From a phage, in the sequence record PZ809289.1: DNA of 64,000 bases; one strand, written 5' to 3'. Positions 4,103 through 58,531 of this stretch are shown here, piece by piece (the stretch's first letter is position 1; every line of letters starts with the position of its first letter). The notes under the pieces are model-generated. The model was not told the origin of the DNA. It was given only the letters and a program-made list of their open reading frames with translations, and ran no database searches. Made by a program: the position numbers and the translations under genes.

Positions 4103-4501
4103 ATGAATATCGAAGATAAAGAAATGCAAGAGTTGTATAATTCATTAACACCTGAACAACAAAAATATGCCAAAGAACTAGAGAAAGCTCTTACTTTCAA
4201 CTTGGCAAAAACTGATTGGGCCGCTATGTATGAAGAAAAAACTAGATTAGAACTTGAAGCCGTCGAAAGAAATGAATGGATTGTCGAAACCAAGATTTCT
4301 GATGGTGGTTGCTCTGTTGAGGTGTCAGCTGTAGTTAAAGGTACTCATGGTGAAAAATCATGGGGCTGGCATAATGAAGCAAACAAACATATTGTTCTCT
4401 CAACGTCAAAAACTTATGGCCAAAGGGCTCCTGTATCCAAAGCTATTATTAAGCAAGCTCAATGGGAAGCCAATGAAATTTGCCTCGCAAAAATGAAATA
4501 A
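4103..4501 (+). CDS. hypothetical protein
   Basis: SD GAGGAG 7 nt upstream; 132 aa. Confidence 0.55.
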   Translation: MNIEDKEMQELYNSLTPEQQKYAKELEKALTFNLAKTDWAAMYEEKTRLELEAVERNEWIVETKISDGGCSVEVSAVVKGTHGEKSWGWHNEANKHIVLSTSKTYGQRAPVSKAIIKQAQWEANEICLAKMK

Positions 4502-11241: not shown

Positions 11242-11249
11242 TATAAATA
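11242..11249 (+). promoter_or_regulatory. late promoter TATAAATA upstream of lysozyme gene
   Basis: TATAAATA followed by hairpin ACCTCCT...AGGAGGT that contains the SD of e. Confidence 0.6.
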
Positions 11250-11766: not shown

Positions 11767-12151
11767 TGAATTTATCGCAGAGAATGTAATTCCTGCATCT
11801 AAAGAACTTTTGGCAATGTTCGAATCTGAAGAGTTCACTGAAGAACTGAATGAGAATCTGACCCAGGCCACTCCTCAGGTTATTCGCGTTCGTAATGCCC
11901 TTCAGACAGGCATGCAGGCTCGCGTCTCTAAGACTATGAAGCTGGCCTTCACCACTTCTAAAAATGAAGACTACGGTGATGGTATTGCAATGAACACTGG
12001 ACAGTATTATGTTGAGTGGAATGGCGAAACCGGTACTGCTAAGATTCGCCAAACCAGAGCAGCGGGTGGTAAAATGTTGGACATTAAACTGAACGTTAAA
12101 GAGAAAGACGTCGCGGCTTTGTTCAAGAATTGGATGAAGACCTATAAATAA
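11753..12151 (+). CDS. internal-protein-like protein with capsid targeting sequence
   Basis: Starts [11 protein letters not shown]; position of T4 ipIII; start overlaps stop of e. Confidence 0.7.
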
Positions 12152-17276: not shown

Positions 17277-17740
17277 TTATTGATTATATTAAGGGCGATA
17301 TCGTCGCCCTGTTTCTTCAAGGTAATAATGTTGCACACGGGTGCAACTGTTTCCACACAATGGGTTCAGGTGTAGCTGGGCAATTGGCTAAGGCTTATCC
17401 GCCTATTCTCGCTATCGATAAAACTACTTATTTAGGCAATTTGGCAAAACTTGGCACGTTTACTCAAGCTACAGGTAATAATGGCCAAATTTGCTATAAT
17501 TTATATACCCAATACGAACCAGGCCCTAATCTTGATTATGGTGCTTTAGTAAACTGTATGATAGAATTAAATCAACAAGCAAAAGGTCTTTTGTTTAAAC
17601 CAAGAATTTATATCCCTCGCATTGGTTGTGGTATTGCTGGTGGTGATTGGGACAAGGTTTATCAATTGATTAATTTGTTTACTCCTGATATTAATTTAGT
17701 GGTGGTAGATTATGAAAGCCCATTACCCGCATCCGTTTGA
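17273..17740 (+). CDS. macro-domain protein (putative ADP-ribose binding/hydrolase)
   Basis: VAHGCNC...GSGVAGQLA and GCGIAGG resemble macro-domain NAAN...GGGVAGAI and G-x-G motifs; ATGA overlap. Confidence 0.55.
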   Translation: MIIDYIKGDIVALFLQGNNVAHGCNCFHTMGSGVAGQLAKAYPPILAIDKTTYLGNLAKLGTFTQATGNNGQICYNLYTQYEPGPNLDYGALVNCMIELNQQAKGLLFKPRIYIPRIGCGIAGGDWDKVYQLINLFTPDINLVVVDYESPLPASV

Positions 17741-29916: not shown

Positions 29917-30102
29917 ATGAAAACTGAACTGATTTATACTGAAAAGTTAAATGGCGGTAAAGTCTGGAAACTTCTTATTAAAGGAAGTCCTACTGATCAG
30001 TTTATGGCCACTTGTGTAGGGTTATACACCCGTCCTACTAAAAAGATGATTCGTCAATTTAAACGGTTGCATCGCTCGTTTTATAGTACATTTGAAAAAT
30101 AA
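29917..30102 (+). CDS. hypothetical basic protein
   Basis: Start ambiguous (29905 or 29917). Confidence 0.35.
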   Translation: MKTELIYTEKLNGGKVWKLLIKGSPTDQFMATCVGLYTRPTKKMIRQFKRLHRSFYSTFEK

Positions 30103-30137
30103 TAAATACCCTTATCTAATAATGGTAAGGGTTTATT

Positions 30138-30611
30138 ATGTTGTTGACCGGCAAATTATACAAAGAAGAAAAACAAAAACTTTATGATGCACAATGTGGT
30201 AAGTGTTTGATTTGTAAACGTGAATTAAACCCTGATGTTCAAAGTAACCACCTTGACCACGACCATGAATTGAACGGGCCAAAAGCCGGTAAGGTTCGTG
30301 GTTTACTATGTAACCTGTGCAATGCTGCAGAAGGACAAATGAAGCATAAGTTCAACCGTTCTGGTCTTAAAGGTCAAAACGTTGACTACCTCGAATGGTT
30401 AGAGAATTTGCTGGTCTATCTGAAAGCTGATTATACTGAAAACAATATTCATCCTAATTTCGTTCCTGATAAAACCAAAGAGTTCAGCAGGTTGGGTAAG
30501 GAAGAAATGATTGCTGAAATGCTTTCACACGGAATGACTTATAATGAATCTGCCACTAAGAAACAAATGGTGGATTCATTCAAAAAACAACTGAGGAAAT
30601 CGCTTAAATGA
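30138..30611 (+). CDS. 49: endonuclease VII (Holliday junction resolvase), gene 49
   Basis: MLLTGKLYKEEKQK...HLDHDHELNGPKAGKVRGLLCNLCNAAEG, matches T4 endo VII zinc/H-N-H core. Confidence 0.95.
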   Translation: MLLTGKLYKEEKQKLYDAQCGKCLICKRELNPDVQSNHLDHDHELNGPKAGKVRGLLCNLCNAAEGQMKHKFNRSGLKGQNVDYLEWLENLLVYLKADYTENNIHPNFVPDKTKEFSRLGKEEMIAEMLSHGMTYNESATKKQMVDSFKKQLRKSLK

Positions 30612-56417: not shown

Positions 56418-57446
56418 ATGTCATATGTCGATAGAGAATTTGCTGTACGTGCCTTGAATTATCAACCTAAATTCAGACAAGTAACTGGTAGTGATTTTAA
56501 ATTAAACTGTCGTTGTCGTGTATGTGGCGACTCCCTAAAAGATGAGAACAAAGCTCGTTTTTGGGCCTATCCGGCCAATGACGGCTCCGTAATGCTGCAC
56601 TGTTTTAACTGTGACTATTCAGCAGGAATTAAGAAGTATCTATACGAATATGAGCCTGATTTATATCGAGAATATATTCTTGAGAAACATAAAGAGCAAT
56701 CGTTCGGGAGACAAGCTGCACCTAAGGTGGAGATATCAGAAAAGATTAAAGCCAAGATGCCTGTCATCGAAAAGCTTAATTTCTGTGAACGTCTGGATAG
56801 AATGCCAAAGGACCATCCTATTATCAAATATGTGACGTTACGCTGCATTCCTGAAAACAAATGGAACCGGCTGTGGTTTACTAAAGAATGGCCGGCATTG
56901 GTGAACTCTGTCAATCCAGGGACCTATTCTAAAGAAATGCCTGAGCCTCGTTTGGTTATTCCAATTTTCAATAAGAATAAACAAATTGAAAGTTTTCAGG
57001 GTCGAGCCTTACGTAAAGATGCTCCACAAAAATATATTACAATAAAAGCTCATGACCAAGCTACAAAAATATATGGAATGGATACAGTTGACGAACGTCA
57101 GTTGGTGTGGGTAATGGAAGGCCCTATTGACTCTTTGTTTGTTCCGAATGCAATAGCAATTACTGGCGGGTCGTTGGACTTGGCTATGGTTCCATGTAAA
57201 GAAACTCGTGCCTGGGTAATGGACAATGAACCCCGCCATCCTGACACAATTAAGCGTATGCAACGATTAGTTGATGCTGGCGAAAGGGTTCTATTCTGGG
57301 ACAAGGCTCCATGGCCTTCTAAAGATATAAATGATATGATTATGAAAGATAAAGCTGATATAAATGATGTACTGGCATATATGAAAGCTAATATAGCCCA
57401 AGGTTTAATGGCAAAAATGAGACTTTCAAAATATTCTAAAATTTAG
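56418..57446 (+). CDS. 61: DNA primase gp61
   Basis: Zinc ribbon CRCRVCGDS...HCFNC, TOPRIM-like EGPIDS, DNEPRHPD; colinear with T4 gp61. Confidence 0.95.
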   Translation: MSYVDREFAVRALNYQPKFRQVTGSDFKLNCRCRVCGDSLKDENKARFWAYPANDGSVMLHCFNCDYSAGIKKYLYEYEPDLYREYILEKHKEQSFGRQAAPKVEISEKIKAKMPVIEKLNFCERLDRMPKDHPIIKYVTLRCIPENKWNRLWFTKEWPALVNSVNPGTYSKEMPEPRLVIPIFNKNKQIESFQGRALRKDAPQKYITIKAHDQATKIYGMDTVDERQLVWVMEGPIDSLFVPNAIAITGGSLDLAMVPCKETRAWVMDNEPRHPDTIKRMQRLVDAGERVLFWDKAPWPSKDINDMIMKDKADINDVLAYMKANIAQGLMAKMRLSKYSKI

Positions 57447-57643
57447 GCAGGAACTCCGCTAAAGAATCCAATTATGCTTAATACGTGTTCCATTGTAACC
57501 GCTGGTAAAATTATCCCTTGGCTAGCGGCTACAGGGACTACTAGAAGATTCCAAAGGAATACGTCTAGCGCAAGAAAACCTAACATCATTTTCTTGTCTT
57601 TCTTTTCAGCCAATTTCCAGATTTGGTAAAAAATACTGCCCAT
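57443..57643 (-). CDS. small membrane protein on the opposite strand
   Basis: Minus-strand ATG preceded by AGGAGG at 5 nt spacing; 66 aa with hydrophobic helices; convergent with gene 61. Confidence 0.5.
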   Translation of the reverse strand: MGSIFYQIWKLAEKKDKKMMLGFLALDVFLWNLLVVPVAASQGIILPAVTMEHVLSIIGFFSGVPA

Positions 57644-57734
57644 GTTATCCTCCTGTTAAAATAATATTTATTCGCTTTAATCTAACAGTTTATAATTATC
57701 TAACTTACTAATGAATTGAAAAGGAAAAAATATA

Positions 57735-58256
57735 ATGGCACACTTTAACGAATGCTCACAACTTATTGCTGGTGTTGATAAAGCTGAGGAAGCTTATTTT
57801 AATGCTCTGATTCACGAAGATAAAGACCCTCTGCAGGTTATGCTTGATATGCAGAAATCATTACAAGTCCGTTTGGCTAAAGATAAACCTGAATATAACC
57901 GTCATCCTGATGACTTGGCTACTGCAGGTGAAGTTGTTGATTGGTTGCGCAATCAGAAAGATTATATTGATGATGAATTCCGCGAACTTCTGACTTCTCT
58001 TGGTGGCATGAGCAATGGCGAAAAAGATGCGAGCGCTGTATGGAAGCCTTGGAAAGCTCAACATGCTGAACGTCGTGAAACCCTGATTAACGATTTGTCT
58101 CCTGAAGACCAGCTCGAAATTAAATTCGAAATGATTGATATTCTGCACTTTGTTCTGAATATGTTCCAAGGTCTTGGACTGACTGCTGAAGAAATCTTTA
58201 AACTGTATTACCTGAAAAATGCCGAGAACTTTGCTCGCCAGGACCGAGGTTATTAA
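57735..58256 (+). CDS. 56: dCTPase gp56-like (all-alpha NTP pyrophosphatase)
   Basis: 173 aa; synteny between 61 and soc; acidic helical sequence as expected for the MazG-like fold. Confidence 0.6.
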   Translation: MAHFNECSQLIAGVDKAEEAYFNALIHEDKDPLQVMLDMQKSLQVRLAKDKPEYNRHPDDLATAGEVVDWLRNQKDYIDDEFRELLTSLGGMSNGEKDASAVWKPWKAQHAERRETLINDLSPEDQLEIKFEMIDILHFVLNMFQGLGLTAEEIFKLYYLKNAENFARQDRGY

Positions 58257-58258
58257 GT

Positions 58259-58266
58259 TATAAATA
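58259..58266 (+). promoter_or_regulatory. late promoter TATAAATA upstream of soc
   Basis: Exact TATAAATA about 30 nt upstream of soc ATG. Confidence 0.6.
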
Positions 58267-58297
58267 CACCTGTAATTAAACAACAAAGGAGTTAATT

Positions 58298-58531
58298 ATG
58301 GGTGGTTTCGTTAATATCAAAACCTTTACGCATCCGGCTGGTGAAGGTAAAGAAGTTAAAGGTGTTGAAGTATCTGTCCCGTTTGAAATCTATTCAAACG
58401 AGCATCGTATTGCGAATGCACACTATCAGACATTTCCTTCTGAAAAGGCGGCATACACTACTGTAGTAACTGATGCAGCCGATTGGCGAACTAAGAACGC
58501 GGCGATGTTTACGCCTACCCCAGTAGTTTAA
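58298..58531 (+). CDS. soc: small outer capsid protein Soc
   Basis: VNIKTF...HYQTFPSEKAAYTTV matches T4 Soc; late promoter upstream. Confidence 0.85.
   Translation: MGGFVNIKTFTHPAGEGKEVKGVEVSVPFEIYSNEHRIANAHYQTFPSEKAAYTTVVTDAADWRTKNAAMFTPTPVV

Follow-up and report, generated by a model that had tools for sequence, protein, structure and literature searches.

The 64,000-nucleotide stretch of phage DNA that we analysed (sequence record PZ809289.1; hereafter, the window) contains a small open reading frame (ORF), at positions 57443–57643 of the minus strand, that is almost certainly a genuine conserved gene, read in this frame and encoding a membrane protein. The gene is likely to be expressed late in infection, and the best explanation overall, which we consider reasonably probable, is that of a conserved late gene for an inner-membrane protein with remote ties to a holin family; an accessory role in the timing of lysis is our more tentative guess.

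The coding sequence comprises 66 codons followed by TAA (ATG at 57643–57641, TAA at 57445–57443), and its product is MGSIFYQIWKLAEKKDKKMMLGFLALDVFLWNLLVVPVAASQGIILPAVTMEHVLSIIGFFSGVPA. Read from the sequence, an AGGAGG Shine-Dalgarno (SD) sequence (57649–57654, minus strand) is separated from the ATG by the 5-nt spacer ATAAC, and this ORF is the sole case on the minus strand of the window in which AGGAGG is followed by an ATG within 4–9 nt. At its other end, the ORF converges on the primase gene 61, with the TAA of the ORF and the TAG of gene 61 (plus strand, 57444–57446) overlapping in the tetranucleotide TTAG (57443–57446, both strands); the same 4-nt stop overlap is present in T4, Marfa, Moon and VR26. 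Upstream, 91 nt (57644–57734) lie between its ATG and that of gene 56 (dCTPase) at 57735. The window belongs to a Dhakavirus (Tevenvirinae), that is, a T4-type phage of the JS98/QL01 kind. It corresponds approximately to the reverse complement of positions 8.8–72.8 kb of Escherichia phage QL01, the closest annotated genome, and the 1.9 kb around the ORF are 99.4% identical to QL01 and 94.5% identical to JS98. As a whole, it represents a long early/middle region with gene 1, 57A, e, tk, nrdC, 55, 47, 46, 45, 44, 43, uvsX, 41 and 61, followed by 56, soc and modA/B. In the equivalent region of QL01 (~65 kb), the counterpart of our ORF, AVT32_gp028 (YP_009202759.1), is the sole opposite-strand coding sequence among ~135. 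This bears out the initial annotation of the window, made from the letters alone, which had described a lone opposite-strand gene convergent with gene 61 and carrying AGGAGG 5 nt before its ATG, exactly as found here.

Evidence that this frame encodes a protein comes from the pattern of substitutions between orthologues. Mismatches at codon positions 1/2/3 amount to 12/4/38 between the window and Marfa and to 17/10/40 between the window and VR26, with 16/6/44 in a further orthologue comparison and 2/4/22 between Entb_45 and PEi20. The proportions of synonymous and non-synonymous differences (pS and pN) are 0.79 and 0.13 for the window and Marfa, and 0.46 and 0.04 for Entb_45 and PEi20, while pN/pS ranges from 0.24 to 0.57 among the T4-type and Slopekvirus-type members; in an orthologue comparison, the synonymous and non-synonymous rates (dS and dN) were 0.72 and 0.04, with synonymous sites saturated and non-synonymous change low. 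Judged by these substitution patterns, the gene is under purifying selection. Among the six frames, the sense frame alone is open in all of the 15 lineages examined. One competing plus-strand ORF, antisense to the gene at 57474–57629 (frame a2), is often open and was considered as a candidate; it is closed in Roth78, Moon, an S16-like phage, Q7622 and CGG4-1, and it is further excluded by the substitution pattern, which matches the minus-strand frame. A search of positions 57000–58300 for RNA elements in Rfam returned no match at E≤1.

At the protein level, the product matches the hidden Markov model of the PHROG family phrog_2024 significantly and over nearly its full length (E=5.8e-28, 97.5 bits, residues 1–64 on profile positions 1–64 of 65), which places it in this family. 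The members QL01 AVT32_gp028, VR7ORF033w, AR1 ar1_033 and Marfa_028 have the same length, motif and genomic position as the window protein, which shows no difference from the family; phrog_2024 has neither an assigned function nor a Pfam model. Deposited proteins identical in all residues exist as YP_009202759.1/AKU42685.1 and AND75701.1 (UniRef A0A0K1LKI5), each under the name “hypothetical protein”, and because the gene has already been deposited and clustered as such, its novelty is low. The annotations of JS98, JS10 and IME08 do not contain the ORF. One could take this omission, which extends to T4, together with the shortness of the ORF and its lack of a Pfam domain, as a sign of a chance ORF in an intergenic gap. 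This explanation, to which we assign a negligible probability, is refuted by the conservation, codon-position and synteny evidence and by the recovery of a coherent family of 50–82 residues from 1.84 billion representative proteins.

Synteny in related phages, which the initial annotation had proposed as a check, is extensive. The gene occupies the same place in at least 11 genera, facing primase gene 61 tail-to-tail from the opposite strand, with an overlap of usually 4 nt. The carriers of this position include Dhakavirus, Marfavirus, Gaprivervirus, Kanagawavirus, Mosugukvirus, Gelderlandvirus, Moonvirus, Mosigvirus, Tequatrovirus and a Slopekvirus-like Klebsiella phage; in Roth78 and CGG4-1, the homologue and gene 61 do not overlap. 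T4 itself carries a homologue of 66 codons in the 309-bp gap between dam and 61 (NC_000866, 17738–17938, plus strand; 4239–4439 in our extracted locus L017), with the product MVQKLMALVNAIKGNKKRIAFTISTMVGILLWNFILSPVAIAHGVNIPVVTLDTFVDLAFALVGLI and with GATAAATA at 17709–17716 and AAGGAGG upstream; a late transcript is predicted to start near 17722. It is missing from the annotations of NC_000866, AF158101 and X01416, and NCBI has accessions for near-identical proteins of RB phages but none for the exact T4 protein. Three tblastn searches, which overlap in their results, found the T4 type in 698 phage records, the Dhaka type in 139 and the Slopekvirus type in 169, and a profile search of the 1.84 billion representatives yielded only 17 clusters, all of them within the 50–82 residues mentioned above. 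Several public records contain mislabelled genes (L009 1501–1725; P0020; L005 2741–2908; L016 3197–3361): the homologues of CGG4-1 and IME341 are called “dCTP pyrophosphatase”, that of SAKp28 “DNA packaging ATPase”, and in Marfa and Roth78 the gp61.1 homologues, which are small, carry “major capsid protein” notes.

The family comprises two diverged paralogue subfamilies with 26–30% identity, namely subfamily A (MGSIFYQIWKL…), to which the window protein belongs, and subfamily B (MxKLxxLxxAIKG…), to which the T4 protein belongs. Both occur in tandem in Gaprivervirus and ESCO47. In the Gaprivervirus tandem, the T4-type copy lies upstream and the Dhaka-type copy adjoins the primase gene (L006 1295–1701; L014 1311–1620; L015 1249–1629; L012 1462–1884). 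In SP18, RZ and ECML-359, the primase-proximal copy A is truncated or decayed, and in RZ it is separated from the primase gene by a homing endonuclease gene.

The case for late expression starts from a T4 late-promoter-like element, AATAAATA, located at 57665–57672 of the minus strand, 21 nt before the ATG, which agrees with the consensus TATAAATA in 7 of 8 positions. Read on the minus strand, the order upstream of the gene is …GCG AATAAATA TTATTTTAAC AGGAGG ATAAC ATG. In T4, TATAAATA occupies positions −13 to −6 of late promoters, and the T at −13 is often A in T4-like phages (PMC1524935). From the geometry of T4 late promoters (PMC1524935), transcription is predicted to start near 57659 (57657–57661, minus strand), 6 nt past the octamer, giving a leader of ~16 nt. 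The element is not particular to the window: among 12 lineages whose flanking DNA is otherwise unalignable, 10 have an exact ATAAATA at a distance of 12–21 nt from the ATG, and a strong SD (AGGAGG, GGAGG or AGGAG) has been kept in all 12. The two hallmarks of a T4-type late gene, a TATAAATA-type element near the SD and ATG and the retention of this element in orthologues despite diverged flanks, are therefore both present. All six copies of TATAAATA within the window (3069, 11242, 12143, 19695, 56197 and 58259) lie on the plus strand, with none on the minus strand. The site at 11242 lies 22 nt before the ATG of e (~11272), and others precede soc (58259) and 61.1 (56197); the arrangement of promoter, AGGAGG and ATG at our ORF matches that of the late genes e and soc and of 61.1. 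The sites at 12143 and 19695 are 80–90 nt from the next ORF start rather than ~20 nt. The heptamer ATAAATA is found in three copies on the minus strand of the 64 kb, one of them being that upstream of the ORF. Its counts of 8 and 3 on the two strands compare with ~14–17 per strand that we estimate from base composition, and since the motif is rarer than this composition predicts, avoidance of spurious late promoters is suggested. In Gaprivervirus, the motif precedes the upstream tandem copy only, for which reason the pair looks co-transcribed.

Upstream of the ORF there is no convincing σ70-type promoter. Because a late-promoter-like motif precedes the ATG in every lineage checked, the reading with the best support is that of a late gene whose transcription opposes the early flow. 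The initial annotation had suggested a “late or host-independent” function; the conserved late-promoter-like element speaks for the first half of this suggestion, whereas the second was neither defined nor is it supported, since late transcription in T4 still uses the host RNA polymerase core, together with phage gp55, gp33 and gp45 (Nolan et al. 2006, PMC1524935). We also found no terminator-like hairpin on either strand within 56900–57900, and a late transcript would therefore run on antisense into gene 61. This raises the alternative that the transcript is what matters, a late antisense RNA that would help to shut off early mRNA, with the peptide secondary. The convergence with gene 61 and the overlapping stops in most genera, along with the missing terminator, are in line with such a unit. 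On the other hand, the peptide is the selected entity, because constraint at the protein level is strong, the strong SD is conserved and several residues are invariant; moreover, siphophages and prophages retain the protein with no primase gene beside it, and the overlap is absent from Roth78 and CGG4-1. We accordingly rate an antisense unit as very improbable and retain the late protein-coding gene as our reading.

The protein encoded by this presumed late gene was described in the initial annotation as having hydrophobic helices, which upon closer analysis become one strong predicted transmembrane helix and one weaker C-terminal segment. Hydrophobicity and charge analysis places the transmembrane helix at codons 19–41 (57521–57589, minus strand), and the AlphaFold model (predicted local distance difference test score, pLDDT, 71) has helices at residues 2–11, 14–41 and 51–62. 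The family signature, W31 N32 … P37. A39 … (G43) .. L46 P47, spans codons 31–47 (57503–57553, minus strand) and covers the end of the transmembrane helix and the loop behind it, which corresponds to the conserved G..LP.V of the model. W31, N32, P37, A39, L46 and P47 are invariant and G43 is near-invariant in two alignments of the family (A1 and A2), giving the motif WN-x4-P-x-A-x6-LP. The N-terminal segment carries 4–8 Lys/Arg, while the C-terminal ~25 residues contain 0–1 Lys/Arg and 1–3 Asp/Glu; because of the positive-inside rule, we infer that the N-terminus is cytoplasmic. The C-terminal segment is weakly hydrophobic and in several lineages too polar for a confident second transmembrane helix. 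As modeled, the C-terminal helix would be either periplasmic and interfacial or part of a re-entrant hairpin.

A possible origin of this architecture emerged from the comparison with the Pfam family GTA_holin_3TM (PF11351), named after the gene transfer agent (GTA). In sequence searches of Pfam, NCBIfam, PADLOC and PDB, sub-threshold matches to PF11351 were the only ones to rise above noise, and the confident matches in a structure search of BFVD were family members only. Two distant members of our family match PF11351 with 15.3 and 13.6 bits, both at profile positions 66–117. One of the family members recovered from BFVD, OE5505, is named “Holin” in UniProt, and tblastn with a distant member retrieved from Pseudanabaena phage Pan1 a “GTA-like holin” of 81 residues, to which the family profile aligns with an hhalign probability of 93%. 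For a direct profile-profile comparison, the reference alignment (A4) consisted of four bona fide PF11351 holins (59–90 bits), each adjacent to an endolysin gene. The broad family profile (A3) aligned to it with a probability of 94.4%, a score of 43.8 and a pairwise E-value of 8.9e-8 that is uncorrected for a database search. The alignment puts family columns 12–65 on holin columns 72–133, that is, on the second transmembrane segment (TM2), the loop and the third transmembrane segment (TM3). The signature at codons 31–47 falls on the TM2-loop portion of the holins. Reversed alignments scored 13–14, and 300 column shuffles had a mean of ~10, a standard deviation of ~2 and a maximum of 15.7, so that the similarity extends beyond composition. 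When only the 15 primase-adjacent T4-like members were used, the probability was 61.7% and the score was 30.3, whereas shuffles reached at most 21.4. Taken as a profile-level signal, the similarity to the holin family is order-dependent, reproducible and moderate. We consider it somewhat better than an even chance that the family is remotely homologous to the C-terminal hairpin (TM2-loop-TM3) of GTA-type holins and thus of holin-family ancestry. A split-holin arrangement, in which a 94-residue protein (in L024, L025 and L032) would provide the missing N-terminal half of PF11351, was also tried and rejected, its hhalign score of 12.1 falling inside the shuffle null of 10.0 ± 2.2.

Several observations weigh against this line of argument, from the late promoter to the holin link. 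Mutants of T4 that lack t do not lyse and go on accumulating phage. Because of this, the protein cannot, in T4, be a self-sufficient holin or spontaneously depolarize the membrane. The late-promoter-like element AATAAATA deviates from TATAAATA at −13 and so matches at only 7 of 8 positions, and the remaining 2 of the 12 lineages carry ATTAAATA, which is one base longer, in place of the exact heptamer. A Pfam search with the window protein found no match at E≤1, neither this protein nor the best family members reach the PF11351 gathering threshold of 24.8 bits, and the narrower family profile (A2) aligned to the holins with a probability of only 17.6% and a score of 23.8. Profiles of transmembrane segments are, in addition, prone to spurious matches, and the missing correction of the pairwise E-values counts here as well. 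The neighbors of the gene encode primase and dCTPase instead of an endolysin, e being ~46 kb away. The C-terminus is hydrophobic and uncharged (…FFSGVPA), with the charge located at the N-terminus, whereas a hydrophilic, highly charged tail is usual in holins. A full-text literature search turned up no paper that treats the ORF, VR7 gp033 or any T4 gene located between dam and 61. Finally, even the GTA prototype owes its designation as a holin largely to inference (PMC3423380). Given also that PF11351 proteins have ~120–150 residues and three hydrophobic segments, compared with 66 residues, one strong transmembrane helix and a weak segment here, the window protein is, as far as its sequence features go, not a member of PF11351, because it stays below the gathering score, is too short, has neither the N-terminal part nor the charged C-terminal tail, and does not adjoin an endolysin gene.

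Homologues outside the T4-type phages provide a different view of the genomic context. In E. coli prophages, the final gene of the prophage encodes a homologue of 67–70 residues (PHROG 2024, E=2.5e-11); it adjoins host yegD/alkA or yliH and is preceded by a block with tail genes and a gene for an 81-residue protein with a transmembrane segment and a coiled coil. The genes that precede the homologue in metagenomic phages are a probable tail-fibre gene, one for a 94-residue protein with a transmembrane segment and a coiled coil, and one for Endonuclease VII; the whole set lies on the strand of the tail genes, and the homologue is likewise co-oriented with tail genes in unrelated siphophage contigs. 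The PHROG matches of the neighbors, “minor tail protein” among them, are weak, and no lysis-related Pfam domain was found in the neighbors of the prophage copies or of the short “GTA-like holin” of Pan1. These prophage and metagenomic contexts agree with late expression and do not settle the function. As to further details of the same loci, the E. coli prophage block (L019–L023, L029) contains a SegE GIY-YIG fragment and, on the opposite strand, a gene resembling that of T4 lysozyme. In the metagenomic phages, the homologue is translationally coupled to the Endonuclease VII (PF02945) gene (L024 4260–5210; L025 4263–5153; L032 4272–5159), and in L025 it is convergent and overlapping with a SegE-like GIY-YIG gene.

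This context bears on two other functions that a small late membrane protein might have. One is that of a membrane-bound morphogenesis helper, acting in prohead initiation or in tail or tail-fibre assembly at the inner membrane. Its late-type promoter would suit such a role, as would the location of the homologue inside or just past the tail and tail-fibre blocks of non-T4 phages and prophages, beside proteins with the weak “minor tail protein” matches. However, the protein has no similarity to known assembly factors, in T4-type phages its gene is located a long way from those for structural proteins, and regions behind tail-fibre genes often hold unrelated accessory genes; we regard a role in morphogenesis as improbable. 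Slightly less improbable, though still unlikely, is a superinfection-exclusion, immunity-type or anti-defence protein that would resemble T4 Imm in targeting the host envelope or a host factor bound to the membrane. The product is a small inner-membrane protein, its tandem diverged paralogues and decaying copies resemble the turnover typical of host-interface genes, and the place of the E. coli copies at the very end of the prophage is typical of morons. Against this, exclusion must act early, yet the late-type promoter alone is conserved upstream of the gene, and no meaningful match was found in PADLOC. Imm (PF14373) and Spackle (PF25676) of T4 are also small envelope proteins and are encoded within a few kb of the locus in some relatives, but they lie on the early strand, are expressed early and show no similarity to the window protein in Pfam, so that neither the homology nor, judged by the promoter, the timing of Imm/Sp-type exclusion is found here.

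We therefore return to the late accessory protein of the lysis system. In the sequence of events that we propose, the gene would be transcribed late from the gp55-type late promoter AATAAATA, starting near 57659, and translated efficiently from AGGAGG. Its product would insert into the inner membrane via the single transmembrane helix with the invariant Trp-Asn, leaving the lysine-rich N-terminus in the cytoplasm; a tight Pro/Gly loop would then lead into the acidic, weakly hydrophobic C-terminal helix, at the periplasmic face or folded back as a hairpin. Through helix-helix contacts, this accessory inner-membrane protein could modulate hole formation or the timing of lysis by the T4-type lysis system. 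Taken for itself, a lysis-related role is tentative. It is tempting to speculate further that the protein is a stripped-down holin-family hairpin and an overlooked, near-universal late part of lysis control in T-even phages, which we hold to be a shade more doubtful still; in this case, it might tune the firing of the T holin or couple lysis to the state of the membrane, via transmembrane contacts mediated by the Asn.

Other elements of the window adjoin or resemble the promoter region of the gene. On the plus strand, a MotA-box-like sequence, TTCGCTTTA (57671–57679), followed after an 11-nt spacer by TATAAT (57691–57696), was recognized by eye at 57671–57696 and probably drives gene 56 as a middle-type promoter; in T4, a mot-box middle promoter is annotated ahead of the gene 56/69 region (record X01416). 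The MotA-box-like sequence overlaps the minus-strand late element by 2 nt, which would make the two back-to-back divergent promoters of different temporal classes. Elsewhere, at 30101–30150 (plus strand), AATAAATA is directly followed by a GC-containing hairpin (cccttatc…ggtaaggg) and then by an ATG, which may be a late promoter or a terminator arrangement upstream of an ORF. Two CATAAATA motifs on opposite strands (1882–1889, plus; 1914–1907, minus), ~30 nt apart, flank a short inverted repeat 3′ of the tRNA-Met gene (1800–1870), which is one of only two tRNA genes in the window (Met and Arg).

The gene itself is ordinary and has already been deposited. What our analysis adds is the gap in the T4 annotation, the conservation across T-even phages together with a late promoter, and the link to a holin family. 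Since the T4 gene is missing from the annotations of NC_000866 and AF158101, omics studies that rely on these are blind to it. It is also among the few genes whose fixed place, on the “wrong” strand, is shared by essentially all enterobacterial T-even genera, with what appears to be a conserved late promoter inside an early/middle region. The similarity to half a holin turns an anonymous ORF into a testable hypothesis, that of an additional membrane player in T4 lysis or lysis inhibition; should the holin link be wrong, the gene would represent one more conserved small membrane protein.

When the protein is set beside known systems, it shares with PF11351 (TC 1.E.54; putative holin rcc00556 of RcGTA and many phage holins encoded beside endolysins) the status of a small phage inner-membrane protein and a TM2-loop-TM3 region in register, with W-x-[FY]-[LI]-x-x-P, G, LP, an acidic residue and G-x-x-G, although it is half as long, ends without the charged C-terminal tail and lacks the N-terminal ~70 residues, which form the hydrophobic and long-helix part. 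The class II holins, with the pinholin S68 of phage 21, a hairpin of two transmembrane segments, as an example, resemble it in their ~65–70 residues, two hydrophobic segments, very short turn and late expression, the last being our prediction for the window protein. To our knowledge, there is no detectable sequence similarity between them, and the window protein differs in having neither a charged C-terminus nor a conserved dual-start motif, and in a second segment that is too polar in several lineages. We likewise know of no homology to the T4 holin T or the antiholin RI, which are late inner-membrane proteins with large periplasmic domains and established genetics. If the window protein does modulate lysis, T and RI are its candidate partners.

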